Counted from the first letter of the stretch, positions 1 through 62,093 are shown. The stretch: 64,000 nt of DNA from Pholidichthys leucotaenia (GCA_020510985.1 CM035843.1:157123922-157187921); one strand, 5' to 3'. Notes: generated by a model from the letters alone, not told the origin. Made by a program: numbers and translations.

Positions 1-12
1 CAATTGACTTTG

Positions 13-957: not shown

Positions 958-960
958 GAT

Positions 961-1190: not shown

Positions 1191-1351
1191 GTACAGAGTG
1201 TTATGTTGGTAGTAGGAGCCAAGGACGAGACTGAGTGTAGAACTGGACACATGTTTATTAGTGACGCCTTCTTACAATACATAGACACCTGCTAGGCAGG
1301 GAGGAGGCCAAGAGAACGCCACTCCTTTTCACTGCCCTTTTATACCCTGAC

Positions 1352-1692
1352 CCATCCATCTTCTTCCGCTTCATCCTTTTCGGGTCGCGGGGGGCTGGAG
1401 CCCATCCCAGCATCTTTGGGTGAGAGGCAGGGTACACCCTGGACAGATCGCCAGTCCATCGCAAGGCCAACACAGAGAGACAGACAACCATTCACTCTCA
1501 CAGTCATACCTAAGGACAATTTAGAATCCCCAGTTTGATGCCAATTAACCTAACTTGCATGTTTTTTGGCATGTGGGAGGAAACCGGAGAAGTCCCGGAG
1601 TAAACCCACGCAGACACGGGGAGAACATACAAACTCCACACAGATCACTGTTGGTCGGGGGCTGGGATCGAACCCAGGATCCCCTGACCGGT
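1352..1692 (-). mobile_element. tRNA-derived SINE, 5'-truncated, same core as 633-957 but a different tail
   Basis: Reverse complement carries 'ggttcgatcccagcccccgaccaacagtgatctgtgtggagtttg.atgttctccccgtgtctgcgtgggtttactccgg...cccacatgccaaaaaacatgcaagttagg', then the common teleost tail '...gtgaatggttgtctgtctctctgtgttggccttgcgatggactggcgatctgtccagggtgtaccctgcc...gatgaagcggaagaagatggatgg'. Confidence 0.75.
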
Positions 1693-1904
1693 GTCACACA
1701 ATAAAGGCCCAGCGCAACACAGAGGCGTTGTAGTTCATAAGTTCATCCACAGGAGGGCGGTGCAGTTCCATGGTGGTTCTGCAGCAACTCATGCTAATGA
1801 CCGGAAAAGAGGAGACCTGGGTCAAGCGACAAACACAAACACCACTGCCTCATTTACCATGGGGTAGACACGACAAACAACAAGGAAGTTATACGTTTGG
1901 TAAA

Positions 1905-2095
1905 AACACGTTATAAATTTACAAGAAACATTGTAAATTTTTTTTGTAAATTTGCATTTTTTTTTTCTGATAGGCTACACTTGAAACTTTTTCCTTCTTT
2001 TTTTCCTTTTTTCTTGTAATTTTTTTTCTCTTAAATGTGATGCTTTTCTTCTAAATTTGCAACTTTTTGTTGTAACTTTGCAACATTCATATGGA
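1905..2095 (-). repeat. Minisatellite array (unit 'ttgcaac(t)n..ataaatttgc' family), short block
   Basis: T-rich tandem units 'tttgcaactttttgttgtaactttgcaac' are related to the arrays at 4745-5830. Confidence 0.5.
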
Positions 2096-2689
2096 TGCTG
2101 GTTAAGTTTTATTCAGTGTAATCAGCAGTGATTGTTTTAGCGAGGAGGATGGTGGGTGTTCACCAGTTTAGCGTGAGGTTCAAATGTATAGATTGTAGAG
2201 GATGCCTTTCACAGACAAGACTGAGTTTATTTCTCAGGGTTGGTTTACTGAGAGGTCACATCCTCTAACAAGCACAGAATCTCAGAAAAGAGGAAGAGCA
2301 ATCGTCTCACACAGTTCTTATATTCTCCAAAGTCACAAATCCCCCAACATCAAATCACACACCCCCAACCCACAGTCCTTTAGTAAACATCCAGCCCCGA
2401 GGCTCCTTGGTGTCTCCATTGTCTCTTAACCTCCTAGCCTCCGGGGCTCCTGCTGGGACATTCTCTCCAACTTCCCATCTCCTGCAAGGCCAACTTCACA
2501 CCTCCCGTAGGTCCCTGCAGGGTCAGGTCCTCTTTGTCCATTAAGACGTGAAGCTTCTAGAATATGCACCGTCATGCCTACTAGGTGTATGTGGGGAATA
2601 TGGATACAATATATGCGCCCTAAATATGCCCCATAAGATGTAAATTAGCTACAAACTTGGAAGAATAAAAGTGCAAAGATATGATAAAG

Positions 2690-3705
2690 GATGCCAGTTT
2701 TTTCAAGTTGCAAATTACAATTTAATTACACAGAAGAAAGCATCCAGATGCAAATTTACAAGACAAAGTTGAACATTTACAGAAAAAAATAAACTTTTGA
2801 GAAAAAGCTGCAAATTTATAAGAGAAAAGTAGCAAATTTATGAGAAAAAAGAAAATTTACATTAAAAAAATGCCAATTTTTGACAGAAAAAGTTGCAATT
2901 TTATGGGAAAAAAAAGTCACAATTTTTTAATAAAAAAGTTGCAAATTTACCAGAAAAAAAATGACAATGTATGGGGAAAAAGCTGCAAATTTAAAAGAAC
3001 AAGATAGTGAATTTATGTAAAAAAAATGTAATTTTTTTGACAAAAAAGTCACAAATTTATGAGGGAAAAAGGTAGCAAATTGTTGAGGAAAACGTCACAA
3101 AATTACAAGAAAAATAGCAAATTTATGTGAAAAAGTTGCAATATTTTGCGAATAAAGTCACAAATTTATGAGGGAAAAGGTTGTAAATTCTTGAGGAAAA
3201 CGTCGCAAAATTAGAACAAAAAATTGCAAAATTATGTGAAAAAAGTTGACAATTTTTGACAAAAAGTCACAGATTAATGAGAAAAAAGTTACAAGTTTAT
3301 GAGAAAAAATGAAACTTTACAGGAAAAAAACTGCAAATTTACAAAAAAATTGAAAATTTATGAAAAAAGTCAAATTTTTTAGCAAAAAAATTGCAGATTT
3401 ATGAGAATATAAGTCACAAATTTATGAGGAAAAAAGTTGCAAGTTGTTGAGGAAAAAGTCACTTTTTTTTTGCAAATTTATGTGAAAAAGTTGAAAATTT
3501 CTGAGAAAAAAGCCACAAATTTAAGAGAAAAAAATGAAACTTTACAAGAAAAAAATGCAAATTTATGAGAAAAAGGTCAATTTTCAAGAAAAAAAACAGC
3601 AAAGTTATGAAATGTCACACATTTTTTTAGGAAAAAATTGCAGATCTATGAGGGGAAAGTAGTCACATTTTGTTAAAAAAAACAGCGTTGCAGAGCTACA
3701 AGTTT
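2690..3705 (+). repeat. Minisatellite array, A-rich orientation. About 20-bp unit 'gttgcaaatttatgagaaaaa' with an about 120-bp higher-order repeat
   Basis: More than 40 tandem units. Blocks 3050-3167 and 3168-3285 repeat as a unit of about 118 bp ('gtcacaaatttatgagggaaaa.g.t.g.aaatt.ttgaggaaaacgtc.caaaatta...'). Confidence 0.85.
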
Positions 3706-4744
3706 TTTTTTTATTATTTCCGCTTAGAATTGATCGCTGAGAGTCATGTTAGTTTTGCAAATATATGGAAAGATTTGACACTATTCGAGAAAAACGCAAA
3801 TTTTTAACAATTTTCCAAAATAAGAGCGTTGACCATTGAGCGCTAGGGTCAGACTTTTATTCTGAAAAGCCAACCGGAAGCTCAAACGCTATAGCTAACT
3901 TAACGCTAACTGATAAGCACCGAGTAGACGCAGTTTTTCTCGGTCTTCACCATTGTTGTGTTTTCTCTGGACTTTTCCCAACAGATTGTCAGCGACAGAA
4001 CCTCTGACAGCAGAGCGAGAGTTTGGACCCGGTTCGGACGGTAACATAAACCTCAGCCTCTTCACCAAACCGCACAAAAATGACGTATTTCATCACACTA
4101 TTAAAGTTTGTGTCTGACACGGCGGCTCACTGAGCTGACGTGGTAGAATTGTTAGTAGCTTCATGGGATTTGTTCAGTGAAAATGACGAGCTGTTCAGCT
4201 TTCATTAGTGCCGAGAGCTGGAATTTACATCAGGTTGGGCTCACTTCCGCGTTTATGCGCAGGTTACTCTGATGTCAACTAAGGAGGAAGCGCTGACATC
4301 AGCGCCGCTTCGACGGCTTCGCCCATCGCAACCCGGAGCAAAGGTCTGCTGGACACTCCGTACCTGCGTAAACCAAAATGTTGTGGTGGTTTATTTTTGA
4401 TATCAAAATGTGACGCAAAACAGAAAAAAGAATTGACAACAACAGACATTTCTGATCGGACCATATAAGGCTGCTACTGCAGTCAAAGCAGCAGCTTTAT
4501 ACAGTATGTTGCGGTCAGAAATCCACATTTTCTTTGGTCTTTGATGACGCAGCTGCGGAAGTGGGAGGGAGTGCCGGGGGTGCGGAGTGTCCTGATACGG
4601 GCGAAAGAGCGGTGTCCCCTCGTGTCATCAGAACGCTTGAAGTTACGGAACTGAATAACATGATTTTGAACCAGTGATTCTAAGCAGAAATGCAAAAACA
4701 AAACAACTCTTTAAACTTTCCCCCCCCCCCCCAAGATTAGCAAC
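3706..4744. other. Unique about 1-kb core flanked by inverted minisatellite arrays. CpG-containing, with CRE-like palindromes
   Basis: No tandem structure. Contains 'gagctgacgtgg' (about 4133-4144) and 'gctgacatcagcgc' (about 4293-4306). Only short ORFs; no recognisable domain. Confidence 0.5.
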
Positions 4745-5830
4745 TTTTTTCTGAAATTTTTCCTCATAAAATTGCAGTTTTTCTTGTAAATCTGCAACAT
4801 TTTTCCTGTAAATTTTTCGTTTTTTTTAAAACAAATTTGCAACTTTTTTCACATAAATTTGGGATTTTTTTTCTCAAAAATTAGCAACGTTTTTCATAAA
4901 TTAAAAAAAAACAACTATTTTTTAAAGTGGCATCTTTTATCTTAGCATCTTTATTCTTGCAAATTTCTAGATTTGCATTTCTTTCCTAAAAAAATCTTAG
5001 CTTTTTTCCCCTCATAGATTTACAACTTTATTCTCAAAATTTGCAGCTTTTAGTTTGCAGCTTTTTCCTGTAAATTTTCAACTTTTTTCTCATAAATTTG
5101 CCAAGTTTTTCAAAGATGTGCTTTTTTCTCAAAAATGTGCATTTTTTTTCATAAATTTGCAAAAAGAATTAAGTTTAATTTTCAGTTTTCTCCTGAAAAA
5201 TTTTCTCATAGATTTGCAGGTTTTTTTCCTCAAAAATGTGCGTGTTTTTCACATAAATCTGTGATTTTTTTTCTCAAAACTTTTCATCTTTTTTCCCCAC
5301 ATAAATTTAAAACAATTTTCCTGTAACTGTTCAACTTTTTTTCAAAAATTTGCAACTTTTTTCATAAACTGGAAAAACAAAAACCTTTTTTCTTGGAAAT
5401 TTTCTACCGTAAATTTTCAGCTTGTTTTTTTCTTACAGATTTGCATTTCTTTCCTAAAAAAATCAGCTTTTTTCTCTCATAGATTTGCATATTTTTTTCT
5501 CATAAGTTTGCAACATTTTCCTGTAAATTTTCATTTTTGTCATGAATTTGCAACTTTTTTCTTATTAATTTTCAATTTTTTTTCTCAGTGTACTTTTTTT
5601 CATAAATTTTCACAAAAAGGCTTAATAATTTTCAAATTTCTCTTGAAAAATTTTTCCTCATAGTTTTGCATTTTTTCTCCAAATTTCATTTTTTTCCTCA
5701 AAAAATTTCCATCCTTTTTATGTAAATTTGCAACTTTGTTTCATAGATTTGTGATTTTTTCTCATAAATTTGTAAAGTTTTTTCTCATATTTGTTTCTTT
5801 TTTCCTGTAAATTTTAGTGTTATCATATTT
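4745..5830 (-). repeat. Minisatellite array, same family as 2690-3705 in inverted (T-rich) orientation
   Basis: Units 'ttttctcataaatttgcaac' are the reverse complement of the 2690-3705 unit. ORFs 5055-5326 in the track are low-complexity artefacts. Confidence 0.85.
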
Positions 5831-6039
5831 TCACTTTTAGCCCATAAGAACCTAGACTCTCCAAGGAAAATTATGGGGGACTGGGTTCTTAAGAGTTAAT
5901 GTGACATGTATCATACACAGCTGAATAACAAAAAAAAAACAAGTGGTTGCATAAGTTTGCACACCCATAAACTAATTGTCCATTGCAGAGCCTCTTGATT
6001 TAATCACAGCTTTCAGTCTTTTTGGGTCAGAGTCTGTTA

Positions 6040-6240
6040 CCACCGTCACTGTGTTTACACACGTGTGCATGCAATGTAAAACCAAATGACTTCACCAGAA
6101 TGAAAATGAAGTCTTGGAGTGACCCAGACTGAAATCCAACTGAAAATCTGTGGGCTGTGCACCAGGGATGTGCCCGTTTAAGGGCGTGCACACTTATAAC
6201 GCAGGAAAATCAGCTGGTAATTGTGATGCAAATGAGCATC
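6040..6240 (+). pseudogene. Degraded Tc1-like transposase fragment
   Basis: 'agtcttggagtgacccagactgaaatccaactgaaaatctgtgggc' is a decayed version of the transposase C-terminal motif '[17 protein letters not shown]'. Confidence 0.4.
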
Positions 6241-6260
6241 TATCTCTCTCTCCCTGACAG

Positions 6261-6388
6261 CCATGGGTGTGTTTGAGGCGTGCTCGGTGCTCCTGGAGCT
6301 GAAGAACCTGCCTTTTAAGGAGAAGAAGAATCTGAAGTCAGCCGTGGTGGAGAATGGAGGCCTCCTCTCCTTTGTGGTCAATAAACAG
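6261..6388 (+). CDS. Host coding exon, N-terminal half of a BRCT-like domain
   Basis: Polypyrimidine tract plus AG acceptor ('tctctctccctgacag|CC') and 'CAG|gtcaga' donor. Translation MGVFEACSVLLELKNLPFKEKKNLKSAVVENGGLLSFVVNKQ has the BRCT-like pattern hydrophobic..GG..hydrophobic. Ends in phase 0. Confidence 0.6.
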
Positions 6389-6509
6389 GTCAGAGGCTGG
6401 GACTGGGGAGAAAAAAAACCAAACAAACAACAAAACACATATTTGACCAAAAATATCTGCAGGCAGCCTTAAAAAATAAAGACGAGACACACAATGAACA
6501 AAAGTTTTA

Positions 6510-8123
<1,614 letters not shown>

Positions 8124-11262: not shown

Positions 11263-12132
11263 ATTTGCACTGCTCATCTGGTTGCTGGTGGTTTTATTCA
11301 CTGTGTCATCATCATCATCATCATCATCATCATCTATGAGGAAATGAGATGCTGATGAACAGGCCGGTTCTCCCACACACTGACTCATAATTAATCTGTT
11401 GCTGCCTTCCCACTAACTCTCAGTGGATATAACTGTACACTCTCATGTTTAACAACAGGGTTTTATGATTTTAAAAAGTGAGACCATGACAGATGACAGA
11501 TTGTTTCCAGACTTTTGCCACCTTCAGTGTGACCTCAAACCTGTACAGTTCAAGTGGAGAAAAACACAAAGAATACAAACAATGCAATGTATAGTTTAGG
11601 CCTTTATTCTAAGGTCACCAGACCCAGAAGAATTACATCTCATTGTGCTACACTTATTGATAGCATATTTTCAAATAATATGGATAATAACACAAAGTGG
11701 ATTAATCATCGATACTGGTGACCATCTGCTAATATTAAGTTTTTGACAATGATTACAGGAAAGAACTAGAAAAGCACTCGGACAGCGCAGGACCTCCGCC
11801 AAGTACCTCAGTTCCCCATAATATTGGGATTTTCCCCAAATATAATAGTCCTACATTTATTTTATCTATATTTTCAGATTCCTTGACCATCAAAACATAC
11901 CTTTAGCAACTGGATTCACATTGATATCTTTATTAGTTCAGTAGTTATTGACAAAAATCACTTTTTCGGTAATGGCAGTTTTCCTCTGGATATAGCTTCA
12001 TAGCTTTTGAAGATACAACAAATCCATTGACACGTCACTGATTCCTCAGTGTCTTGGCTATATTTTGGTGTTTGTTGTATGTTTATATCTTAATTTGTTA
12101 CCTTACAGTGATGAAAATTCCAAAGATCCCCT

Positions 12133-12546
12133 TGTGGGACACATATGTTGGTTTCATATGCTCCACAAATAGAATACTGTATGTATATTGTGTGCTGCAC
12201 GTCTCAGGGGAACAAAGGGACTGAGCCTCCTAGAGGTAATGGGAGGGTGTGAGATTTGGCCTTTTGTTTCAAGGAGATGGCCTTGAGAGATTTCCTGACC
12301 ACCGGAGACTAGGGGGTGGATGGTGTTAAGATCGGAGGAAGTTATATTGTGACTGGGATTAAGTACCATGTGACTGTATGTTTGATTAAACACCATGTGA
12401 CTGTAGTTTGATGTCCTAGGTATAAAAGGACAGATGTGAGAAGATTCATCCTCTTTTCCTGCTTTGAAATTGTTGGAGTATGTGATTGTGAATAAAGCTG
12501 AATCTGAGGAATAAACTCAGTCTCATCCTTCAACACATTCTCCACA
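12133..12546 (+). repeat. 5' LTR of copy 1
   Basis: Identical apart from a few SNPs to 16606-17019. Contains 'tataaaagg' at about 12420 and 'aataaagctg' at about 12485. Confidence 0.85.
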
Positions 12547-12549
12547 CTG

Positions 12550-13992
12550 GTGACCTTACGACGAAGCATGAGCAGAGATAATTCTCCTGAGCGGGGCTCG
12601 TCAGAAGCCAGCCTGACGAATGCCGCCACGTTCCAGCTGCCGGACTTCTGGCAGAATAGTCCGCGCTCCTGGTTTAGCGCGGTCGAGGCGCAGTTCAACC
12701 TCCGGAGAATCTCGAGAGACGACACAAAATTCTACCATGTGGTGGCGAAGCTGGACAACCACACAGTCCAGAGGGTGGAGAACCTGGTCAAACACCCGCC
12801 GGACAGCGACAAGTACAGCGCATTGAAGACTGCGCTTATCAGCCACTTCACCCCCTCGGTGCAACAGCGAGCAGAGGGGCTTCTAGCGTTGACGGAGTTT
12901 GAGAACGACAGACCCGCGGACCTGATGGGGAAAATGCTGAGGTTGAGAGACTCCGAAGATGACAGCTTTATCTTCGCCCACCTTTTCCTCAGGACCCTGC
13001 CGCCAGCGGTGAGAGTGACCCTGGCAGGTTCACCTCTGTTGGCCCGGCGAGACTACCACGAGCTGAGCCAGGAGGCACAACGACTCGTCGATGCCCACAA
13101 ACGGAACGCAGCTTCGGCCGCGGCAGCAGAGCTAGGCGCAACGTCCGGAGACGGCATGGGGCCAGAGGCTGCAGCACCAGACTCACCGACGACGGCAGCA
13201 GCAAGGGCCAGGCGACACAGAGTGGACGACCACCTTTGCTTCTACCATCGCCGCTTTGCAGAGAGGGCGCTCAAGTGCATTCCACCGTGCCATTTCAAGC
13301 GCTCGGCCCTCGTGGAGGAGAACAAGCTGCTCTACCTGACTGATGCACGTTCGGGGAGGCATTTCCTCATGGACACAGGCTCCCAGCTGAGCTTCATCAC
13401 GCCTTCCTACGCGGACCGGCTTGCGCCTTCCAGGGGTCCCCGGGTGTCAGCAGCGAACGGCTCAGCGATTAAGACCTTCGGGGAGAGGACTCTGCTTCTG
13501 TCTTTGCAGGGCCGTGCATTTGAGTGGACTTTTGTTGTAGCGGCAGTCAATTTCAACATGTTAGGGGCTGATTTTTTGTGCTCACATGGTTTATTGGTTG
13601 ATCTTGCTAACAGACGTCTGGTTAATGCACTCTCCTTTCACTCTATTCCCTGCACAGCTCGAGTGGCCCCGCCAACTGCACAAGCCAACGTCACAGCTGC
13701 AGGTGGTAAGTTCCACGCACTCCTCACTCAGTTCCCAGCACTCACGGTCCCAACGTTTTCGGCGACAGTGGCTAAACATGGGGTGGAACATTTTCTTACT
13801 ACCACCGGCCCGCCCGTTTTTGCAAAAGCTCGGCACTTGGACTCAGCTAAACTGACCATAGCGCGCAAGGAGTTTGCCAACCTGGAAAAACTGGGCATCA
13901 TCAGGCGTTCGAAGAGCCCCTGGGCTTCACCACTGCACATGGTCCCAAAGGCTGATGGCTCGTGGCGACCTGCGGTGATTTCCGCAGGTTGA
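12550..13992 (+). CDS. gag-protease ORF of copy 1 (480 aa, uninterrupted)
   Basis: DUF1759-like gag N-terminus. Cysteine/histidine cluster 'CFYHRRFAERALKCIPPCH'. Aspartic protease 'FLMDTGSQLSFI'. Confidence 0.75.
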   Translation: MTLRRSMSRDNSPERGSSEASLTNAATFQLPDFWQNSPRSWFSAVEAQFNLRRISRDDTKFYHVVAKLDNHTVQRVENLVKHPPDSDKYSALKTALISHFTPSVQQRAEGLLALTEFENDRPADLMGKMLRLRDSEDDSFIFAHLFLRTLPPAVRVTLAGSPLLARRDYHELSQEAQRLVDAHKRNAASAAAAELGATSGDGMGPEAAAPDSPTTAAARARRHRVDDHLCFYHRRFAERALKCIPPCHFKRSALVEENKLLYLTDARSGRHFLMDTGSQLSFITPSYADRLAPSRGPRVSAANGSAIKTFGERTLLLSLQGRAFEWTFVVAAVNFNMLGADFLCSHGLLVDLANRRLVNALSFHSIPCTARVAPPTAQANVTAAGGKFHALLTQFPALTVPTFSATVAKHGVEHFLTTTGPPVFAKARHLDSAKLTIARKEFANLEKLGIIRRSKSPWASPLHMVPKADGSWRPAVISAG

Positions 13993-15992
13993 ATAACGCC
14001 ACAGCGCACGACCGCTACCCGATTCCGCATATCCAAGATTTTCGGTTCATTTGGCAGGGGGGCGCATTTTTTCTAAAATGACTTACTATGCGGTTACCAC
14101 CAGTTCCAGTGCGCGCTGAGGACATACCCAAAACAGCGGTAATAAACTCCTTTCGGGCTTTTTGAGTTTTTGCGCATGCTGTTTGGGCTCAAGGGAGTGG
14201 TGCCAGACGTTCCAAACGCATGATGGATGCGGTCCTAAGCGATCTCCCTTTCGTGTTCGTCTTCTTGGATGACATTTTGGTAGCCAGCGCGTCCGAAGAC
14301 GAACACGAAAGCCACCTCACAGCAGTTTTCCGGAGGTTGGCAGAGCACGGGTTAATAATTAACCCAGCGAAGTGTCAGTTCAAGGTGGCGCAGATTGATT
14401 TTTTGGGGCATCGCGTTTCGCCAGAAGGAGCGGTCCCTCTGCCCGATAAGGTGCGCGCAATAACAAATTTTCCCCAACCACAAACGGTCAAAGCGTTACA
14501 AGAGTTTTTTGGGAATGGTTAATTTTTATAACAGTTTCCTCCCCCGTGCAGCGCAGCTCATGCAACCATTGTACGCTGCACTAAAAAAACAAAAAACCGA
14601 CGAATAAAATCGAATGGTCTCCTGAGCGGGAGCGCGCATTCTCTCAAGTCAAATCAGCCCTGGCAAACGCTGCGTTGTTGGCACACCCAGTCCCAATGGC
14701 CCGCATGGCGCTCACTATTGACGCGTCAGATGTTGCCATAGGGGCGGTCGTTGAACAGTACGTGGCTGGGGCTGGCAACCGCTCCGTGGTTTTTCAGCAA
14801 AACCTGCGCGATAGTGAGCGAAAATACAGCGCCGTTCGACAGGGATTGTTAGCTCTACACTTGGCCATCCGCCACTTCCAGTTCTGGCTGGAAGGACGCC
14901 GTTTTATACCGCATTCGTGGTCCCACAAACCGCTGACTTTCGCGATGGCCAAGATTTCGGAAACCTTGGTCGGGCCGGCAGCAGAGACAGCTGGCCGCGA
15001 TATCGGAGTTTACCCACCGATATCCAGCATGTGGCAGGTAATATAATGTAGTGGCAGACTGCCTCTCACGTGCTGTGGCGGCTTCCAGGCCCGTGGGGGC
15101 AGACTCTGCAGCCATGGCCGCAGACCAGGGTAGCGACGCGGAAGCGCGCGCCGCCCCCGGTCCGCGTGAGGGATAGATTTATGCCTCCATGGCCGCGAGC
15201 AGGTTAGCGACGCGGACGTGCGCGTGCTCCAGTCTGGACCAACAGGGTTTAAGGCTGGAGAGCAGGGTGCTGCAAGATGGTATGCCCCCCCTAATCTGCG
15301 ATGTCTCCACTGGACGACAGCGTCCGGTCGTACCAGCCGCGTGGCACCGCTGCGTTTTTGACTCGATGCATTCTCTGGTGCACCCGGGGGTGGCGCAGGT
15401 CGTCAGTCAAAATGGTAGGAGAGAAATTTGTAAGGCCGTGCTGAGCAAGCAGGTCAAGGAGTGGGCAACAGCCTGCGTGGCTTGTCAGGAGCCAAAATGC
15501 ACAAACACACTAGAGCTCCCTTGGAGCCTTTTCACATCCCGGCTAAGCGGTTCGATCATGTGCATGGTCGACCTCGTAGGCCCCCTTCCGGTCCGTCACA
15601 GGGGTGCACACACCTTTTTGACAATGGTGGACCGCACCACGCGTTGGGCCGGAATGGTCCCACTGGCATCAACCACAGCCGAGGAGGTGGCGCGCGCATT
15701 TTTAACAGCATGGGTAGCACGTTTTGGAGTTCCGTCAGACATTACGTCCGACAGAGGTCCTCAATTTGTGTCCGAGCTCTGGTCAGCGATTGCCCGCAGC
15801 CTGGGAGTAACGATCGACCGCACTACCGCGTACAACCCGCAGGCTAATGGTTTATGCGAACGTTTCCATAGGTCATTGAAAGCAGCCCTCAGAGCGTCAC
15901 TTACGGATACAAATTGGGTAGACAGGCTACCATGGGTTTTATTGGGGTTGCGTTCTGCACCTAAAGAGGATTTAAAAAGCCTCCCCAGCTGA
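13980..15992 (+). pseudogene. pol of copy 1 (RT, RNase H, integrase), broken into at least 4 frames
   Basis: ORF fragments carry RT 'FVFVFLDDILVAS' (14220-14522), RNase H 'TIDASDVAIGAVVEQ' (14675-15046) and integrase 'HRCVFDSMHSLVHPG...CVACQ...DLVGPLP...DRGPQFVSELW...AYNPQANGLCERFH' (15189-15992), with frameshifts and stops between them. Confidence 0.8.
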
Positions 15993-16605
15993 GTTAGTTT
16001 TTGCGCAGCCACTCGGCTGCCCGGGGAGTTTCTTCCCGGATAATCCTGCGCCAGAGTGCTCCCCTGCTCAGCGGTTGCAGAGCGACACGGGATCGAGCAC
16101 GCTTCCGGGCCCAGTTCATCACAGCTTCCCGCGCGTTTTTGTGCCTAAAAGCTTTTAAAAAAATGCGGAGTTTGTTTTTGTCAGGCATGATGCCCACCGC
16201 CCAAACTTGCAACCGCCTTATGATGGACCATTTAGAGTGCTGGAAACAGGAGAGAAGCATTTTGTGCTAGATTTGGGAGGCAGAAAGGAAGTAATTGGCA
16301 TAAACAGACTCAAACCCGCTTTTGTGATGGCTGATGAAGCTGTGCATTTGGCGAGGGCTCCCTGACGCGGCAGACCCCCTAGAGGGCATCCTCCGGAACA
16401 CCCACAGAGATTGACTAACAGTTCTAATCCACAGGCAGCGGCCCCACAGCAGGAGGACTCTGCGGAGGCAGGAAAACCGGCTTACAGCAAATACGGCAGA
16501 AGACTAAGGCCTAAGCGGCATGTGGATTGATATGTAGTGATTTTATTATGACATGCATCTTTAGTTATGATTGTTCCATCTTAGACGTTTGGGGGGGGGG
16601 GGTCA

Positions 16606-17019
16606 TGTGGGACACATATGTTGGTTTCATATGCTCCACAAATAGAATACTGTATGTTTATTGTGTGCTGCACGTCTCAGGGGAACAAAGGGACTGAGCC
16701 TCCTAGAGGTAACGGGAGGGTGTGAGATTTGGCCTTTTGTTTCAAGGAGATGGCCTTGAGAGATTTCCTGACCACCGGAGACTAGGGGGTGGATGGTGTT
16801 AAGATCGGAGGAAGTTATATTGTGACTGGGATTAAGTACCATGTGACTGTATGTTTGATTAAACACCATGTGACTGTAGTTTGATGTCCTAGGTATAAAA
16901 GGACAGATGTGAGAAGATTCATCCTCTTTTCCTGCTTTGAAATTGTTGGAGTATGTGATTGTGAATAAAGCTGAATCTGAGGAATAAACTCAGTCTCATC
17001 CTTCAACACATTCTCCACA
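16606..17019 (+). repeat. 3' LTR of copy 1
   Basis: See the 5' LTR entry. Preceded by G13 polypurine tract. Confidence 0.85.
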
Positions 17020-17399
17020 CCCTATTATTTCCTGTTCTGGATCACAGTATCCGGATTTTTTGCAGGATCGGGATCAGTCTTTGATATTTCGTAGAACCTA
17101 TTGGGATCTTATCCTGTATTTTTTTGGCAAGCGTCCTGACCATTTATTGTGGAGTTATATACACATATGCTAAAAATGGGCCTATCTCGCAATGATAAAG
17201 AATCCTTTAAAAAATTCCTGGATCCAGACGGTGATCCGTATCACTCCCAAAATCTAATCATTTCTTCATTGTCCCATTTTGGACTTGTCCTGAAAATTTC
17301 GTCAAAATCCATTGATAACTTTTTGAGTTATGTTGGTAACAGACAGACAGACAAACAAACCCCGGTAAAAACATAACCTCCTTGGCGGAGGTAAAAACA

Positions 17400-17665
17400 A
17401 AAAAACAGCACTTATGTACAGATGAGTGAGGACTGAAGAATCAATGAATGCTTTAAAAAAAATGATCTAGCAAAACAGAATTGGGAAGAACTATATAATG
17501 AAGAAGACACAGACAAAGCATATGAAATATTTTTAAGAATATTTAAATTATTATATGATAAAAATTGTCCACTTATTAAAAAAATCAATAAGAAGCAAAA
17601 ATATTCAGACAATCCATGGGTAACCAAGGGATTGAAAAATGCCCGCGAAAAGAAAAATATGTTAT
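17400..17665 (+). mobile_element. CR1/Rex-like LINE fragment (segment upstream of RT)
   Basis: Nucleotide homology to 44940-45160. Protein 'EELYNEEDTDKAYEIFLRIFKLLYDKNCPLIKKINKKQKYSDNPWVTKGLKNARKKKN'. Confidence 0.6.
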
Positions 17666-19289: not shown

Positions 19290-22200
19290 CTAATTGTAGG
19301 CTATATCAAAAAGGTAGGTTTTAGCCCTATTCTTAAAAACAGAGATCGAGTCTGACTCCCGAATCCAGATTGGCAGCTGATTCCACAGGAGAGGAGCTTG
19401 ATAACTGAAGGCTCTGCCTCCCATTGTACTTTTGGAGATTCTAGGTATTACAAGTAAACCTGCATTTTGGGAGCGTAGTGCTCTGTTAGGATGATACGGT
19501 AGTATCAGATCTTTTAAATAAAAAGGAGCCTGATTGTTTAGAGCTTTGTAAGTAAGAAGAAGGATTTTAAACTTAATTCTAAACTCTATGGGAAGCCAAT
19601 GAAGGGAGGCCAGAACCGGAGAGATATGATCTCTCTTTCTAGTACCTGTTAAAACTCTTGCTGCAGCATTTTGGATCAGCTGAAGACTTTTTAAAGATGT
19701 TTTAGGACAACCTGATAATAAAGAATTACAATAATCTAATCTCGAGCTAACAAAAGCGTGGATCAGCTTCTCAGCATCACTCTGAGACAAGATGCTCCTA
19801 ATCTTGGCAATATTACGCAAATGATAGAAGGCAGTCTTAGAAACAAATTTAATATGTGAATTGAAGGACAAATCCTGATCAAAAATAACTCCAAGGTTCC
19901 TCACAGAGCTATTAAGAGAAAGAGTAACTGCATCCAAACTGAAAGTTTGATTTGGAAAGGAATTTCTAAGGTTTTTTGGACCAACAAGAATGACTTCAGT
20001 CTTATCTGAATTTAATAGCAGGAAATTACAAGTCATCCAAACTTTGATTTCCTTAAGACAGGCTTCTAACTTGGCTAATTGATTAGTATCATCTGGCTTC
20101 ATTGACAGGTATAATTGTGTGTCATCTGCATAACAGTGAAAATGTATACAGTGCTTTCTAATAATGTTGCCTAACGGAAGCATATATAAACTAAAAAGAG
20201 TAGGGCCAAGCACAGATCCCTGTGGAACTCCTTGACTAAGCTTTGAGCTGAGAGAAAACTCATCATTTACATGAACAAACTGGAACCTATCAGATAAATA
20301 AGATCTAAACCACTGCAACGAAGTTCCATTAAGTCCAACATAGTGTTCTAATCTATCAAGTAGAATATTATGATCAATAGTATCAAAAGCTGCACTAAGA
20401 TCTAAAAGGACAAGTACAGAAACTAGTCCATTATCAGATGCAATGAGGAGGTCGTTAGTGACCTTCGCTAAGGCTGTTTCAGTGCTATGATGGATTCTAA
20501 ACCCAGATTGAAACTCCTCAAATAAACCATTTCCCTGCAGGTGGTCAAATAATTGCATAGCAACAACTCTTTCTAAGATTTTTGAAATGAAAGGGAGATT
20601 AGAGATTGGTCTATAGTTAGCTAAAGCTCCTGGATCTAGCGTTGGCTTTTTGAGTAAGGGTTTAATTACAGCCGTTTTAAAAGCCTGCGGTACATGGCCT
20701 AAAGTTAATGAAGAATTGATTATATGAAGAATAAAGCTACCAATAAGTGGGAAGACTTCTTTAAATAACCTGGTAGGAATAGGGTCTAAAAGACAAGTTG
20801 AAGGTTTGGATGAGGAAACTATTTTGTCTAACTCACAAAGGTCGATTGGAGTAAACTCATCAAGACAGACATCAATAGAAGGAGTTGTAGTAGTTACAGT
20901 ATTTAAGTTAACTGTGGGAAGAATCTGATTGATTTTATCTCTGATGGATGAAATTTTATTATTGAAAAAGTTCATAAAGTCCTGACTAGTAAGCTCTAAG
21001 GGAATCCAAGGATTGACAGAGTCCTGGCTCTTTGTCAACCTGGCTACAGTACTGAAAAGAAACCTGGGATTATTCTTGTTCTCTTCTATTAATGCAGAGT
21101 AATAACTCGTTCTAGCTTTTCTAAGAGATTTTTTATAAATTAAAAGATGATTTCTCCAAGTTAAATAGATTTCATCTAAATTAGTAGAGCGCCATTTTCT
21201 TTCTAATTGACGAGTCTTCTGTTTTAAGCTACGAGTTTCTGTGTTGAACCAAGGAGTTAAAAATCTCTGATTAGACTTTTTCTTTTTTAAGGGGGCCACC
21301 AAGTCTAGAGCCTGATGTAGAGAAGCTGAAACACTATCCACCATGTTATCAATTACAGAAGGAGCAAGCTGTCTATAGCTTATTTCCGTTGTGTTGACAC
21401 ATGGCATAGAGGAAACAATCTGCATAAATTTGGAAACAGCATCATCTGAGAGGCATCTACTGTGATAATATTTTTCTTTAGGAGCCAAATAGTCAGAAAT
21501 AGTAAAATCAAAGGTTAACAGACAATGGTCTGACAGTACAGGGTTATGAGGAGACACTACCAGATTTTCTATTTCTATGCCATATGTCAGAACAAGGTCC
21601 AATGTATGGTGGAGGTAATGAGTAGAATTTCCTACTTTCTGAGAAAACCCAATCGAGTCTAATATTGAATTAAAAGCCACATTAAGGCAATCACTATCTA
21701 CATCCACATGTATATTAAAGTCCCCTACTATAATTATTCTATCAGATTTCAGCACTAAATCAGCTAAGAAATCAGGAAATTCGGATAAAAATTCTGAATA
21801 GGTTGATGGGGGACGATAAACTATGGCAAATAAAATTGGGTTTAACCTGGAATTGCTAAAGTGCCCAATACTGAGGACCAGGCCCTCAAAGGAATTATAA
21901 CATGTTTTTTGCTTTACATTAACTAGTAATTTGGAATGGTAAATTGTTGCTACTCCTCCTCCACGACCAGAACTTCTGGGATTTTGACAGTTTAAATAAC
22001 CAGAGGGAGTTGATTCATTTAAACCAACATAATCCTCTTGCCCTAACCAAGTCTCTGTAAGGGATATTAAATCAATCTGATGATCAATTAACAGATCATG
22101 GACTAACAGAGACTTGGGAGTTAGAGACCTAATATTTAATAAACCACATTTAATTTTTAAATTATGAGGAGGAACAGAGGCCAAATCATTCAATTTAGAG

Positions 22201-22469
22201 GCTTTATGTTTAATTTGAGTTTTACCAATATTTTGCTTTATCACTTTGGGATGCTTATACATTATATTTTTATTTACTTTGGAGGGAGCAGACAACGATT
22301 CTCTGATGGGGAAGACAGGGGCTAAGTTGAGGGGGTGGCGGATGAAGAGGAGCTGCAGAGAGGCGTGTAAGACTGCGACTCTGCTTCCTGGTCCCAACTC
22401 TGAGTAGTCACGGTTTTGGAAATTTGGATAAAAAAGATGCCAGATTGTTAGATAAATGAGAAGCACCAT
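19290..22469 (-). CDS. L2 ORF2: APE endonuclease plus reverse transcriptase, 1059 aa, uninterrupted
   Basis: Endonuclease '[33 protein letters not shown]'. RT '[17 protein letters not shown]', '[19 protein letters not shown]', 'CYADDTQLY'. C-terminal '[11 protein letters not shown]...[12 protein letters not shown]' block. Confidence 0.85.
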
Positions 22470-23163
22470 CCAAAGTGGGATGAATGCTGTCTCGTCTCAT
22501 AAGACCAGGTTTTCCCCAAAAAGAGCTCCAATTGTCAATGTAGCCCACGTCATTTTTAGGACACCACACAGACAGCCAGCGGTTCAAGGATGACGAGCGA
22601 CTAAACATGTCATCACTGGTCAGATTGGGGAGGGGCCCAGAGAATACTACAGTGGCAGACATCGTTTTTGCAAAGTCACACACCGATTCTACATTAAGTT
22701 TCGTGACTTCCGACTGCCGGAGACGGATGTCATTAATGCCGGCGTGAATAACAATTGTGGAATATTTACAGTTACTTTTAGCCAGCATTTTCAAATTTGA
22801 CTCGATGTCGCCTGCTCTGGCCCCAGGAATGCATGTGACTATGGCCGATGGAGTCTCTAGGTTCACGTTTCTGACTACAGAGTCGCCAATGATCAGAGTT
22901 TTTTCCTCAGCGGGTGTGTCGCTGAGCGGGGAAAAACGATTAGAAACGTGAACAGGTTGGTGGTGAACCGGGGCTTTGCGACTAGGCTTCCTTCTCACCG
23001 TCACCCACCCAGTCTCCTCGCTGCAGAGGAGAGCCGGGGAACCGGTGACAGGGGGACCTAAACTAGCTAGCTCCGCTGCAGCTAAGGGGCGTCCGTCGAG
23101 ATTAACTGGCGCAGACGGTGTTTCAATGCAGCGGAGCCGGGATTCCAAACGATGAAAACACAT
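22408..23163 (-). CDS. L2 ORF1 with SGNH/GDSL-type esterase domain, 251 aa
   Basis: '[11 protein letters not shown]' (GDS motif) and 'IHAGINDI' blocks, typical of CR1/L2-clade ORF1 esterases. May lack a few N-terminal residues. Confidence 0.65.
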
Positions 23164-23858: not shown

Positions 23859-24479
23859 TCAATAGGGTTTAGGTCTTGAGACATGCTTGGCCAGTCCATC
23901 ACCTTTACCCTGTTTCTTTAGCAAGGCAGTGGTCGTTTTGGTGGTGTGTTTGGGTTCGTTATTGTGTTGGAATACTGCCCTGCGGCCCAGTGTCCAAAGG
24001 GAGGGGATCATGCTCTGCTTCAGTATGTCAGCGTACATGTTGACATTCATGGTTCCCTCAATGAACTGTAGCTCCCCAGTGCGGGCAGCACTCATGCAGC
24101 CCCAAACCATGACACTCCCACCACCATGCTTGACTGTAGGCAAGACACACTTGTCTTTGTACTCCTCACCTGGTTGCCGCAACACATGCTTGACACAATC
24201 TGAACCAAATAAGCTTATTTTGGTGTCATCAGACCACAGGACATGGTTCCAGTAATCCATGTCCTTAGTCTGCTCGTCTTCAGCAAACTGTTTGCAGTCT
24301 TTCTTGTGCATCATCTTTAAAAGGTGCTTCCTTCTGGGATGACAGCTATGCAGACCAATTTGATGCAGTGTGCTTCGTATGGTCTGAGCACTGACAGGCT
24401 GACCCCCCCCCCCCCCCCACACCCTTTCAACCTCTGCAGCAATGCTGGCAGCACTTATACATCTATTTTCAAAATACAA
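23859..24479 (-). pseudogene. Tc1 transposase, C-terminal 206 aa in frame; N-terminus frameshifted
   Basis: 'HVLWSDDTKISLFG', '[18 protein letters not shown]', 'FQHNNEPKHT'. Upstream helix-turn-helix part is in another frame (around 24500-24660). Confidence 0.75.
24400..24419. repeat. Poly-C homopolymer
   Basis: About 19 C in a row. Confidence 0.9.
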
Positions 24480-25077: not shown

Positions 25078-25208
25078 TATACAAGTGCTACACATTTGAT
25101 TCTCCTGTATCCACGATCAAAAATAATGGATTTAATGGAATTTCATGGACTTTGAGTTGGAGGTGCTCCTGAAGGAGGTAGAGGTGCTTAAAAACATCTT
25201 ATTTGAGG
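25078..25208 (-). repeat. Repeat R, distal copy, segment between the Tc1 and the L1 copy A insertion
   Basis: Reverse complement matches 490-620. Confidence 0.7.
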
Positions 25209-25361
25209 ACTTCTGGTTATGGCGGCCACGTAGGAAGACGTGTTTTGCCCTGCTCTGCTCCTAAAGATAAAAAGTCGGCAAATAACTCTCTCATTTGGAA
25301 CAAAGCCTATCCCAGCGTTTGGGCGAGGATATGCCGGTAAAGCCTAAGTCTGGGAAATCAG

Positions 25362-26219
25362 GTGGAGGGAAAAACTGAACCGCCGAAACAGTCCAAGTTA
25401 ACGGACTTTCACGTTCGTGATGGAGCAGAAAAATCTTCAGATATGGCGGAGCAAGCTAGTGGCGGAGCGGTGACTGCTGGCGACGGCACAGGTGCGGTGC
25501 TCGCTGCCATTAGCTCAATGAGAGCAGACTTTTCCGCTAAATTTGATGGGATTATAGCAGCGATAGAAGGAAAGAGAAAGGAAATAAGTGACTGTATGGA
25601 ACGAGTAACGCAGGTGGAGCTCCGAATTTCCAGCGTTGAGGATGACGTCACCAGCCTACAATTAAAGGTGCGCACATTGGAATTAAAAAATAAACGTCTG
25701 GAAGATAATGTCCTGGACTTAGAATCCCGGTCGAGATGGAACAACCTGAGGCTGGTGGGTCTCCCGGAGGGAACCGAGGGTCGGGACCCATGTTCCTTTT
25801 TGGAAAAGTGGATTCCAGAAGCGCTGAACAACGCGGAGCTGCAGTCATCAGTCGTTTTAGAGAGCGCCCATCGAATTGGCCCACCGAGAGATAATAAGGC
25901 ACCACCAAGGACGCTGATTATGAAGTTCCTCAGCTACAGAGACAAGATGACGATCTCCAACGCGGCGCGAGCCAAAGGAGAAATTAAATACCAGGATCAA
26001 CAGGTGCGGTTCTACCCAGATTTGGCCACAGGAATCCAACATTTAAGGAAACAGTTTGACCCCGCCCGTAAAGTGCTGCACAGCCTCGGGACTCCTCATG
26101 GAGTGATTCATCCTGCAAGATTGCTGGTCACATATAAGGGCAGAACTCACACCTTCAAGACCCCTGAGGAGGCGCAGGAGCTCATCAAGCAGATCCAAGA
26201 GGAGACTGGTGGGAGCTAA
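25362..26219 (+). CDS. L1 ORF1p, copy A (coiled coil, RRM, C-terminal domain), 285 aa, uninterrupted
   Basis: 'NNLRLVGLPEGTEGRDPCSFLEKWIPEAL...LESAHRIGPP...PRTLIMKFLSYRDKMTISNAARAKGEIKYQDQQVRFYPDLA...HPARLLVTYKGRTHTFKTPEEAQELIK' is the Transposase_22/L1 ORF1 architecture. Confidence 0.8.
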   Translation: MEGKTEPPKQSKLTDFHVRDGAEKSSDMAEQASGGAVTAGDGTGAVLAAISSMRADFSAKFDGIIAAIEGKRKEISDCMERVTQVELRISSVEDDVTSLQLKVRTLELKNKRLEDNVLDLESRSRWNNLRLVGLPEGTEGRDPCSFLEKWIPEALNNAELQSSVVLESAHRIGPPRDNKAPPRTLIMKFLSYRDKMTISNAARAKGEIKYQDQQVRFYPDLATGIQHLRKQFDPARKVLHSLGTPHGVIHPARLLVTYKGRTHTFKTPEEAQELIKQIQEETGGS

Positions 26220-26656
26220 GCATGAAGCATGAATAAAATATAAGGTAGAATATTTAAGCATTTGCACAGGCATCTGACTGCTCTGAAGCATATAGCAAGT
26301 TTACAAAATATAGATTGTATTATATATTAAAAAAAAACCTATGATGTACAAAGTTGCTATAAAATTTTGGAGTTAAGTTGGAAAAGTACAGAAGAGAGTT
26401 AATGTTACGTCATTAAAAGCAGTAGAGTCAGGGTGATTGAGAGGATAAAGAGGGAGTGGCTTTGGCTGGTCCTCGCGGGTGTGGAGCAGTCAATGGCTAT
26501 AGCGGGAGACAGAATTTTTTTTGATTTTGGGGGGATTACCACAAATGTGGGAAGGGGGAATTTGTTTGTGTGTAGTTTGTAGGATGAATGTTCAACCACT
26601 CATGTTTTTGCTTCTCTGTATGAAAATGTTTACATTGCAAGGTAATCTCAAACTCC

Positions 26657-29600
26657 TTGTTGATCATAGACCAAAGCGTTAATCTTAATTTAACTTCATG
26701 GAATTGCAGAGGTCTACAAAATTTAAAAAAACTTAAACAAGTTATGAATAAAATAAAAGACATAGGTTCAAAAATTGTGTTTTTACAAGAAACTCATCTA
26801 ATAGAGGAGGATGTAAAAAGAATTAGGAGAAGATGGCAAGGAAGTGTATTCACCTCATCATTTTCATCCCGAGCCAGGGAAGTTATGACTCTCATACATA
26901 AATCAATCCCATTTCAAGTGAAAAATGTAATTGGAGACAAATTTGGAAGATATCTAATCATTCAAGGATCTTTGTTATTAGAAAATATAAATCTGGTGAA
27001 CTTATACGGTCCCAATATAGATGATCAAAATTTCTTTGCTAATTTATTTCTTATTTTATCATCACTTACAGGGCAACATATAATAGCAGGGGATTTTAAT
27101 TGTGCATCGAATCCCAGTATAGATAGATCAACAGGACTGGACTGTACGCACAATGGATGCAGGATGATCATTAATCATTTTATGAAAGAATTGAGATTGC
27201 TAGATATATGGAGAGAAATGAAACCACAAGTTAAAACCTACTCTTGTTATTCTAATACCTACAAGACATTCTCACCTATTGACTATTTTTGATCTCCACA
27301 GAATTAAGGTCCAAGATTCAAAACTGCTTCTATGATAATATTGTGATCTCTGATCATGCACCCTGCTGTCTAATCTATGTAGATAAGAAATTGACAAAGG
27401 AACCAGGTAGGTGGCAATTTCAGCATAAATGGCTCAGGATGAGGAATTATGTTAAGTACATAGAAAAACAGATGAGTTTTTTTGATATCAGATACTACAC
27501 AAACATCTGCATGTATAAAGTGGGAGGCTTTCAAAGCTTTAATTGGGGGCCTATTATTAGTTATACAGGTTCAAAATCTAAGAAGACTCGAGAGGGAGAG
27601 AGGTCCAATTGGAACATAAAATCAAAATTCTTCAAGAAAAAGTGTATGCAGGAAGTGACCCAAAGTTAGAGAACGAATTACTGATTCTGAGATCTGAATC
27701 ATGTACAAAAAATCAGCGACTAGAGCTGCCTCGAGTCTTCTAAGATTGAAGCAATCTTTTTATGAACAAGGTGAAAAATCAGGAAAATTATTGGCATGAC
27801 AGATTAAACAATTAGAATTTAAAACACCAATTACCACTATTATAAGTAATGGACAGGCAGTTGTAGATCCTTTAGAAATTAATAGTGCCTTTAGAGATTA
27901 CTATGAAAAATTATATGATACAAAAAAATGAAAACTGACTTAACAAAACTAATGGGTTTTTAGACGGATTATCTATACCGTGAATCCTAATGAAAACAGG
28001 GAGACACTGAGTCTAAAAATTAGTCAAGAAGAAGTTGGGCTAGCCATTGATAATAATGAAATCAGGAAAAAGTGCAGGACCAGATGGTCTTCCAGTTGAC
28101 CTCTATAAAAAATTTAAGAATAAATTAATAAAACCATTTTTGGAAATGGTTTTAGAAGCATTTCAAAATAGTAATTTACCACCATACATGAATAATGCCC
28201 TTAATTATACTGTTGCCAAACAGAGTAAACCCTCTAATAATGTGAAAAATATGAGACCCAGTAAGTCTATTAAATGCTGACCTTAAGATAATCTGTAAAA
28301 TTTTGGCAAGACGACTACAAGAAATATTACCAAATATTATTAACCGAGATCAGAATGGCTTTATAAAGAGGGGTAGCACTGTCCTGGTAAGAAGTTACTT
28401 AAAGAATAGATATCAGTTTGTATGTGTTAAACAACAAAAACTCAGAGCTACTGAAGGTCACCTGTGGAGTCCCCACAGGGTTCAGTTTTGGGACCATTAT
28501 TATTCAATATGTATATAAACTGATATATGTAAAGTTTCAGAAAAATGGACTTAATATTGTTTGCTGATGACACTAACCTGCTATGCAGTGGAAACAACTT
28601 GGAACAACTTTCTGGATACCACTCGGAAAAGGAATTAGGAAAGCTGAAACTGTGGTTTGATTCGAACAAAATAACGCTCAATTTAAGCAAGACAAAATTT
28701 ATAGTCTTTAACAACCATCACAACTACCCAGTACCCCAAACTCAGTGTAAATGGTTGTAGAGATTGAAAGGGTATCCGAAACTAAATTCCTTGGAGTAAT
28801 AATTGATAACAAACTGTGTTGGAAGCCACATATTAATTTATAAAAGGTAAAGTATCCAAATCACTTGCAATATTACACAGAGTGAAAAATTTGCTGAATC
28901 AACCCACACTATACCACCTTGTATCAATCATTAATACTCCCATACATGACATTTTGTAATGAAGTATGGGGAAAACATATAAAAACAAACATATATCCCA
29001 CTCTTTAATGCTTCAAAGAGAGCTATTAGAATAATAAACAAAGCAGCTTACAGGGAACCAACAAACCCACTTTTTCTTAACAAAAAACTCTCAAGTTGAA
29101 AGATCTGATCGACTTTAAAACCGCAATAATAATGTTCAAAGTGAAGAATCTATCACTGCCCGCAAATATCCAAAGTTGTTCCAAACAAGGGAGAAACGAT
29201 ATCACTTCAGAGGAACATGGTATATTTCAAAAGCTACAGTGAGAACAACTACCCACAAGCAACATTGTATTTCAGTGCAAGGTGTTCACGATTATGGAAC
29301 GATTTTGGACCTGAATTAAAATCATGTACAAAGCTTGGACAATTTAAACAAAAACTAAAGGAAGAAATACTCCAAACATATTTACAAGACGACATGTAAA
29401 CTCACATAAGGATTGACATTTCAGCCTGTGTTGTGTTATAGCTTAGTTTTTCTTTTTTCTCTGTGACACTATGTCTTAGATTTGTTTTTGAATAGTAACC
29501 GCTTAACTTAGACTAGCTCAGTTTTCTTTTTCTCTCAGTCATATTTTGTCTTAGCCTTGTTTTAAATTGTAATCGCTCTTGTCTTGTTTTCCTCTTTTTT

Positions 29601-40905: not shown

Positions 40906-40976
40906 CAGCTGCGACCCTCGGCAACGAGAACAGGCTGCTTTACCTGACGGATGCACGCTCGGGGAAACAGTTCCTC

Positions 40977-62077: not shown

Positions 62078-62093
62078 AGAAAACCCTTGTGCA

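Follow-up and report, generated by a model that had tools for sequence, protein, structure and literature searches.

How does a long terminal repeat (LTR) retrotransposon with clean LTRs and a clean gag come to carry a pol gene riddled with frameshifts? The question is raised by E1, an element at positions 12133-17019 of a 64,000-nt stretch from Pholidichthys leucotaenia (GCA_020510985.1 CM035843.1:157123922-157187921). The whole stretch is called the window throughout, and positions are counted from its first letter. E1 is a complete LTR retrotransposon and very probably a recently integrated, defective copy of a CsRn1-clade element of Ty3/Gypsy (Metaviridae) in a teleost genome. The damage to its pol cannot be decay after insertion, because the LTRs are near-identical and CpG is not depleted in the damaged block. 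How that damage arose is weighed below with the help of E2, a sibling element in the same window.

Ends and priming sites of E1

The features that define E1 as a complete element are as follows.

12129-12132, plus strand: left copy of the target-site duplication (TSD), CCCT, read directly and the same as 17020-17023
12133-12546, plus strand: 5' LTR, 414 bp, TGT...ACA, with TATAAA at 12421 and AATAAA at 12491 and 12510
12548-12563, plus strand: primer-binding site (PBS), TGGTGACCTTACGACG, 1 nt past the end of the 5' LTR
16591-16602, plus strand: polypurine tract (PPT), G12, 3 nt before the 3' LTR
16606-17019, plus strand: 3' LTR, 414 bp, TGT...ACA, from LTR-LTR comparison
17020-17023, plus strand: right copy of the TSD, CCCT, by direct reading

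Exact alignment of the two LTRs gives 99.52% identity, with two mismatches over 414 bp (12185 A/T and 12240 T/C) and no insertions or deletions (indels). A young LTR retrotransposon had been proposed from the sequence alone in the original prediction, which specified a 4-bp TSD, TGT...ACA termini and LTRs more than 99% identical with about two differences over 414 bp. All of these points are borne out: CCCT lies on both sides, both LTRs carry the termini, and the near-identical LTRs and the TSD together mark a young insertion. A C follows both LTR copies, and the alternative of a 415-bp LTR with a 3-bp TSD is formally possible.

Gag and protease of E1

The gag-protease part of the interior is free of lesions and holds the following.

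12568-13992, plus strand: gag-protease open reading frame (ORF), 474 amino acids from the ATG at 12568 or 480 from a GTG at 12550
12637-12885, plus strand: Gag DUF7041 domain (Pfam PF23055, E=3.2e-22, scoring 79 bits where the cut-off is 28)
13237-13290, plus strand: Gag CHCC zinc motif CFYHRRFAERALKCIPPC (CX2HX9CX3C; motif definition from PMC2582038)
13360-13578, plus strand: aspartic protease, DTG at 13372 and MLGADFL downstream, motifs by direct reading

The ORF ends 22 nt past the first pol frameshift, within the N-terminal part of reverse transcriptase (RT). An intact gag-protease of 480 amino acids had been predicted, and the frame from 12550 to 13992 is indeed open, with no frameshift in gag-protease. 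None of the 63 conserved columns in gag carries an E1-specific change. The protease (PR) gives a weak Pfam match to gag-asp_proteas (E=9e-4, under the curated cut-off). Judged by these motifs, E1 can probably still encode Gag, with its DUF7041 capsid-like domain and CHCC knuckle, and protease.

Assignment to Ty3/Gypsy

Comparison with the sibling element extends this picture to pol. The features of E2 are as follows.

39729-44590, plus strand: E2, sibling element, 78% nucleotide identity to E1, from repeat and domain comparison
39725-39728 and 44591-44594, plus strand: TSD, CTAA
39729-40120 and 44199-44590, plus strand: LTRs, 392 bp, one mismatch
40122-40138, plus strand: PBS, TGGTGACCTACGACGAG
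40141-40905, plus strand: gag, with one TAG at 40342, where E1 has CAG
ending at 44114, plus strand: pol ORF, open over 1045 amino acids

With a single LTR mismatch, a single TAG in gag and an open pol, E2 is almost intact. Its pol matches the Pfam families RVT_1 (1e-34), RT_RNaseH_2 (1e-28), RT_RNaseH (8e-24), Integrase_H2C2 (5e-14) and rve (4e-15). The ORFs of E1 match DUF7041, a weak retropepsin around the DTG, RVT_1, RT_RNaseH_2/RT_RNaseH and rve, with the pol domains present as fragments. In both elements the domain order is PR-RT-RH-IN, where RH is RNase H and IN is integrase. The database proteins nearest to pol are teleost proteins labelled 'Gypsy retrotransposon integrase-like protein 1' or 'K02A2.6-like' (60-71% identity); every named homologue bears one of these labels or is uncharacterised, and none is annotated as BEL or Pao. 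For gag-PR, proteins of Pholidichthys leucotaenia and other fishes are the closest, with 46-77% identity. A literature search for DUF7041 returned no papers. Because the Pfam domain set is of the Gypsy type and the nearest proteins are Gypsy-labelled, E1 is placed, on predicted domains, in Ty3/Gypsy (Metaviridae) and not in BEL/Pao.

The original prediction had favoured a BEL/Pao element (Belpaoviridae) with a Gag N-terminus resembling DUF1759, a reading that is now barely credible. The 4-bp TSD, the TGT...ACA ends and the PR-RT-RH-IN order fit BEL/Pao as well as Gypsy, the gags of both groups are helical capsid-like proteins, and BEL/Pao elements are LTR retrotransposons that likewise occur in fish genomes. 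However, the Pfam signatures of that group (Peptidase_A17, DUF1758, DUF1759 and DUF5641) are absent from the E1 ORFs at E<=0.01 and from the E2 pol at E<=0.1, and the Gypsy-type RT_RNaseH, RT_RNaseH_2 and Integrase_H2C2 score 1e-14 to 1e-29, making the RNase H and the integrase zinc finger of Gypsy type. In Gag, DUF7041 is matched at E=3e-22, whereas DUF1759 does not appear even at E<=10, nor do the other three signatures. Fish BEL/Pao elements on record measure 6.6-7.6 kb, and E1, at 4.9 kb, falls short of them. A firm Ty3/Gypsy placement together with a chromodomain had been named as the outcome that would speak against BEL/Pao; the placement was obtained, but no chromodomain matched the 1045-aa E2 pol (Pfam, E<=0.1).

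Membership of the CsRn1 clade

Within Ty3/Gypsy, the CsRn1 clade is marked by a Gag CHCC motif of the form CX2HX9CX3C, a tRNA-Trp PBS reading TGGTGA(G/C)CCCG(T/A), a 4-bp TSD, TGT...ACA ends, a GPY/F module and the lack of both a chromodomain and env (PMC2582038). The clade, represented by CsRn1, PwRn1 and AgCR-1 to -14, contains both elements with a fused gag-pol ORF and elements with ORFs overlapping in the -1 frame (PMC2582038).

E1 and E2 share these hallmarks apart from the PBS, which agrees in part. The CHCC motif of E1 recurs in E2, in two relatives taken from public assemblies (the marine-metagenome contig L001, and L002) and in many other relatives, including tick and cnidarian proteins; canonical CCHC was found in none of the relatives checked. 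The PBS of both E1 and E2 starts with TGGTGACC, which is of the tRNA-Trp type: the first 8 nt equal the consensus of the clade, TGGTGA(C/G)C, and are followed by an insertion of 1-2 nt and then by CGACG. In L001 and L002, TGGTGACC lies 1 nt past ...CCACA, and E2 carries it at the equivalent position, the preceding bases in these three reading ...CCACA or ...CTACA. The PBS of L001, TGGTGACCTCGACGT, is a near-complete tRNA-Trp complement. Neither tRNA genes nor RNA families were found in the 64-kb window with ARAGORN and Rfam. Both TSDs, CCCT and CTAA, are 4 bp long. A GPF module, YDGPF, stands at 16219-16233 in E1 and is present in E2 too, and the space between pol and the 3' LTR is too small for an env ORF. 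Both modes of expression recorded for the clade are also seen here, fused gag-pol in E1 and -1 overlapping ORFs in E2. Among the organisms with gag homologues are one cestode, one tick and one cnidarian; the matches in Macrostomum and Sparganum are to pol only and have no gag domain. Boudicca, Gulliver and Kabuki are presumably further members of the clade.

Two differences set E1 and E2 apart from the clade as it was defined. They reside in a vertebrate, while flatworms and insects supplied the elements by which the clade was defined, and their PBS departs from the tRNA-Trp complement after 8 nt. Teleost CsRn1 families are nonetheless on record from medaka, stickleback, Tetraodon and Takifugu, with lengths of about 4.3-4.6 kb and a pol of 1061-1069 amino acids, and one published fish survey scored such elements as often lacking gag (PMC11117352, PMC4746887). 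E1 and E2 resemble these families (among them CsRN1-1 and CsRN1-2 of Takifugu/Tetraodon) in being short (4.9 kb for E1), in the size of pol (about 1060 amino acids against 1045 in E2), in having short LTRs and in a gag that standard gag models miss. The best named matches of E1 and E2 include Takifugu and Tetraodon proteins. They differ in LTR length (174-302 bp in the known families, 392-414 bp here) and show only 60-71% amino acid identity to any database protein. Because of this distance E1 is a different family from the known ones, that is, a new family-level member of a clade already known in teleosts.

The contig L001 (positions 1-7132; ENA marine metagenome contig, PRJEB4352) holds more than one unit, in the order gag-pol-LTR-gag-pol with a period of about 4.2 kb. 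Its two units are only 81-90% identical in places, and L001 is therefore an assembly in which two members of the family stand in tandem or have been joined as a chimera.

Two routes to Gag and Pol

The two elements also bear on how Gag and Pol may be produced, and two further features are needed for the comparison.

40878-40921, plus strand: candidate -1 ribosomal frameshift cassette of E2, consisting of heptamer, spacer and hairpin
13298-13310, plus strand: junction of a 35-nt deletion in E1 relative to E2, from alignment to E2

In E2 the gag frame carries the slippery heptamer G_GGA_AAC at 40878-40884, in the correct register. A spacer of 7 nt separates it from a hairpin at 40892-40921; the gag stop codon comes shortly after the hairpin, and pol lies in the -1 frame. 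L001 (975-1020 and 5176-5221) and L002 (3968-4013) share the GGGAAAC heptamer, and 6 nt further on they have a fully paired 12-bp hairpin whose sequence is unlike that of E2. The support for the hairpin comes from its kept position and its conservation with a different sequence, not from the folding z-score, which at -0.26 is not significant for the 84-nt region past the slippery site of E2. GGGAAAC plus hairpin thus shows the pattern that would be expected of a conserved -1 frameshift signal in E2, L001 and L002. The usual route to Gag and Pol in the group of E1 and E2 may accordingly be described as overlapping frames joined by -1 ribosomal frameshifting at this signal.

The 35-nt deletion in E1 takes out the heptamer, the hairpin and the gag stop codon, and therefore gag and pol are fused in one frame. 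With the loss of the cassette, E1 would have come to encode a fused gag-pol. Two young relatives that differ in how Gag and Pol would be expressed thus stand in the same window, and the converting deletion is directly visible.

State of pol in E1

Downstream of protease the condition of E1 changes.

13970-15620, plus strand: frameshift-riddled pol block, about 20-24 frameshifts, mostly of 1 nt, and TAG at 15174; Pfam fragments of RVT_1, RT_RNaseH(_2) and rve
14262-14273, plus strand: RT FLDD, in the block
14720, plus strand: RNase H DAS, in the block
15369-15485, plus strand: integrase zinc finger, in the block, which also holds the start of the integrase core
15621-16530, plus strand: remaining integrase, with the rve core to about 15839 and YDGPF at 16219-16233

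Lesions were counted by frameshift-aware alignment to four references, namely the E2 pol and three independent database proteins. Against the E2 pol there are 21 frameshifts, 20 of them of 1 nt, comprising 13 insertions and eight deletions. The database proteins give 21-23 at essentially the same positions, and the union across references is about 25. Three in-frame stops are added to these (TAG 15174, TAA 16156 and TGA 16363). As a control, E2 shows no frameshift with three of the four references and two with the remaining one, P0005. The RT, RNase H and integrase of E1 are therefore predicted to be destroyed. Uninterrupted coding of Gag-PR-RT-RH-IN, the test of autonomy, is not found in E1, and in E2 it is broken by the one gag TAG. 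At least three frameshifts had been anticipated in a broken pol; that pol is broken holds, but the count was a large underestimate.

The lesions are unevenly spread. No frameshift falls in the 1402 nt of gag-PR, about 20-24 fall in 13970-15620, and the last 900 nt or so (15621-16530) carry one (15978) and two of the stops (16156 and 16363). If the rate were uniform, such a count would have a probability of about 1e-4 in gag-PR and of about 1e-3 in the 3' part of pol. The earlier description of the decay as localised is therefore apt, gag-PR being free of lesions; the explanation it implied, decay after insertion, is not.

Timing of the damage

Several comparisons place the damage before integration. 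From the LTR divergence (Jukes-Cantor 0.0049), about 10 substitutions are expected in the 4.06-kb interior since insertion. The indels expected in the block over the same time number 0.4-1.4, against at least 20 observed (P<1e-16). The ratio of observed to expected CpG (CpG o/e) is 1.0 in the block of E1 and 1.03 in E2, whereas the host background stands at 0.42-0.47 with an excess of TpG and CpA. Changes from CpG to TpG/CpA between the E1 block and E2 are symmetric, at 27 and 28. After frame correction, the ratio of nonsynonymous to synonymous divergence (dN/dS) relative to E2 is 0.11 for the block, 0.19 for gag and 0.17 for PR. At residues conserved in the family, the block has 28 E1-specific changes at 245 positions, against nine at 245 in E2; the flanks are equal (4 vs 4 and 8 vs 7).

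Other repeats in the window offer a baseline for the indels. In global alignments, natural repeat pairs show an indel-to-mismatch ratio of 0.15-0.25, and about 65% of their indels are of 1 nt. Global alignments were used for this ratio, as a blastn-based baseline exaggerated gap counts. The idea that the indel spectrum proves a sequencing artefact was rejected on these grounds, because natural copies in the window show similar 1-nt-rich indels and the spectrum alone is not diagnostic. An old pseudogene patch as the source of the block was rejected as well, CpG not being depleted.

Under assumed neutral rates for teleosts (1e-9 to 1e-8 per site and year), the LTRs suggest ages of roughly 0.24-2.4 million years for E1 and 0.13-1.3 million years for E2. 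In composition the two elements (GC 0.53, CpG o/e 0.8-0.9) stand out from the background (GC 0.37, CpG o/e 0.42-0.47), although their LTRs are CpG-poor (o/e 0.17-0.49). This outlier composition is consistent with recent arrival or recent activity.

Origin of the damaged copy

The damage in the pol of E1 has its source in a defective template, in recombination or in local assembly error. The most likely reading, tentatively preferred, is that E1 was copied from an RNA whose pol was already defective, and that autonomous relatives provided RT and integrase in trans. E1 would then be a non-autonomous passenger encoding only Gag and PR. The cycle that this implies is a conventional one. Transcription would run from the 5' LTR (TATA at 12421) to the AATAAA signals in the 3' LTR. 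At the PBS beginning TGGTGACC, tRNA-Trp would prime the minus-strand DNA, and the plus strand would be primed at the G-rich polypurine tract; integrase would then join the TGT...ACA ends to the target, producing the 4-bp duplication CCCT. Because its pol is broken, E1 would have needed RT and integrase in trans, if it moved in that state. There is a precedent in the first PwRn1 copy, a clone that also combined clean LTRs (99.7% identical) with a corrupted interior (PMC2582038).

Several observations weigh against this account and against the clade assignment. A second copy of the E1 lineage did not turn up in the collections searched, and the defective master from which the pol lesions would be inherited is putative. 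Proteins were looked up by exact match for the E2 pol and for the E1 gag-PR, read from GTG as well as from ATG; the closest Pholidichthys proteins were looked up too, and metagenome and viral contigs were scanned with gag-PR under tblastn confirmation. None of these searches gave a further copy of the E1/E2 lineage, and an exact scan for the E1-specific deletion junction gave no match. A non-autonomous lineage should show even decay past the first frameshift, but the last 900 nt carry a single one (P ~1e-3). About 40 lesions in 1.6 kb would take very many replication cycles at retrotransposon RT error rates such as those of Ty1. The PBS of E1 matches tRNA-Trp over only 8 contiguous nt (10 with G:U pairs), after which a 2-nt bulge is required. 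Finally, the basis of the proposed CsRn1 assignment of E1 and E2 is a set of hallmarks, not a tree that includes reference elements.

It is possible, although unlikely, that E1 belongs to a non-autonomous lineage of a vertebrate CsRn1-clade element that propagates as 'Gag-protease only'. In such a lineage the 35-nt deletion would have fused gag to pol, and the later loss of pol would have restored Gag-only expression. Mobilisation would be in trans by frameshift-competent relatives such as E2, and 1-nt indels without CpG decay would be the record of repeated error-prone reverse transcription instead of genomic ageing. Comparable arrangements exist in plants, where TR-GAG elements are non-autonomous LTR elements that keep gag and lack pol function; BARE-2, which has no Gag and uses the Gag of BARE-1, is the converse case. 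Like elements of the TR-GAG type, E1 keeps its LTRs, PBS, PPT and an open Gag(-PR) and lacks a working RT and integrase. It differs in that its pol is full-length but frame-broken, not deleted, and in that a single copy has been seen.

Other readings compete with this account. The first of them, which is somewhat unlikely, holds that the cluster of 1-nt indels at 13970-15620 reflects a local assembly or consensus error, for example a repeat gap filled or left unpolished from noisy long reads. The real E1 would then be far less damaged, possibly a recently autonomous single-ORF element. Such an error would suit the predominance of 1-nt frameshifts (20 of 21), the surplus of insertions over deletions (13 to 8), the location of most frameshifts in short runs of 1-3 identical bases and the sharp edges of the block. 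It would suit equally the gene-like character of the frame-corrected block (dN/dS 0.11, CpG o/e 1.0), in which only one in-frame stop is left, in a poorly aligned linker. However, the rest of the window is clean wherever it can be assessed, with no LTR-LTR indels in E1 or E2 and open ORFs of 1045, 1059 and 480 amino acids. About 10-19 extra amino acid changes at family-conserved positions of the block (28/245 vs 9/245 in E2) are matched by none in the flanks, where the counts are equal, and the stops at 16156 and 16363, outside the block, would truncate integrase anyway. Natural transposon copies in the window are also rich in 1-nt indels (ratio 0.15-0.25, about 65%).

That E1 is a mosaic, with a patch of about 13970-15620 taken from a dead family member by template switching or gene conversion, is more doubtful. 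The damage does form a block with clean sequence on either side, and template switching between co-packaged RNAs is common in retroelements. Against this, the patch is as near to E2 as the flanks are (0.81 vs 0.80-0.86) and no donor copy is visible in the window; the patch shows no CpG decay, and therefore its donor was not an old genomic pseudogene. Very improbable is an E1 that is old and decayed and only looks young after its LTRs were homogenised by LTR-LTR gene conversion. Heavy internal damage beside near-identical LTRs would be accounted for in this way, but the 1.4 kb of gag-PR is free of lesions and, where positions are conserved, of changes specific to E1. The CpG o/e inside the element, 0.7-1.0, exceeds the host value of 0.45, and the TSD is perfect.

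Meaning for annotation

For annotation E1 is mostly routine: it is a young Gypsy element, and its clade, CsRn1, has been catalogued in teleosts before. Its analysis corrects a superfamily misassignment and shows DUF7041 with the CHCC motif as a mark of the Gag of the CsRn1 clade. The only feature out of the routine is a pol block that is saturated with frameshifts yet young-looking, and a technical artefact may lie behind it. Where LTRs and gag are clean but a CpG-rich pol is full of frameshifts, the assembly may be locally wrong, or defective copies may have been mobilised in trans. Either reading of the block bears on the use of the assembly to date or count active elements.

Neighbouring transposons

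The window as a whole is an AT-rich mosaic of transposons, including a Tc1-like transposase, several long interspersed nuclear elements (LINEs), one of them with intact ORF1 and ORF2, and fragments of L1-type ORF1. The nearest relatives of these other transposons are in percomorph fishes, at 60-70% identity. Over all transposons of the window the best matches are likewise percomorph, at no more than 60-77%, and a percomorph teleost is the most probable host on this evidence.

A LINE-like fragment of 232 bp occurs near both E1 and E2, at 17437-17663 and 44949-45174, in the same orientation and at 86% identity. Its distance from the element is 418 bp for E1 and 359 bp for E2, downstream in both cases. 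Since the flanks are otherwise unrelated, the likeness is probably due to chance and not to target preference.

The LINE at 19290-23163 (minus strand) has an apparently intact ORF2 of 1059 amino acids with endonuclease and RT, and an overlapping upstream ORF of 251 amino acids. Its best matches are percomorph fish RT proteins (60-70% identity), and by its open frames it may have been recently active. A second LINE, of about 5.5-6.5 kb and with an L1-type ORF1, is present in three copies at 86-94% identity (25206-31685, 31686-37219 and 56561-62078), two of which stand directly head to tail. Copy A is longer by a 1.4-kb insert (28367-29794), to which the sequence at 49270-50639, in opposite orientation, is related. 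Transposase ORFs of the Tc1/mariner type are found at 6855-7904 and as fragments at 23859-24479 (minus strand) and 55594-56043; one is full-length, with 349 amino acids and a CpG o/e of 0.16.

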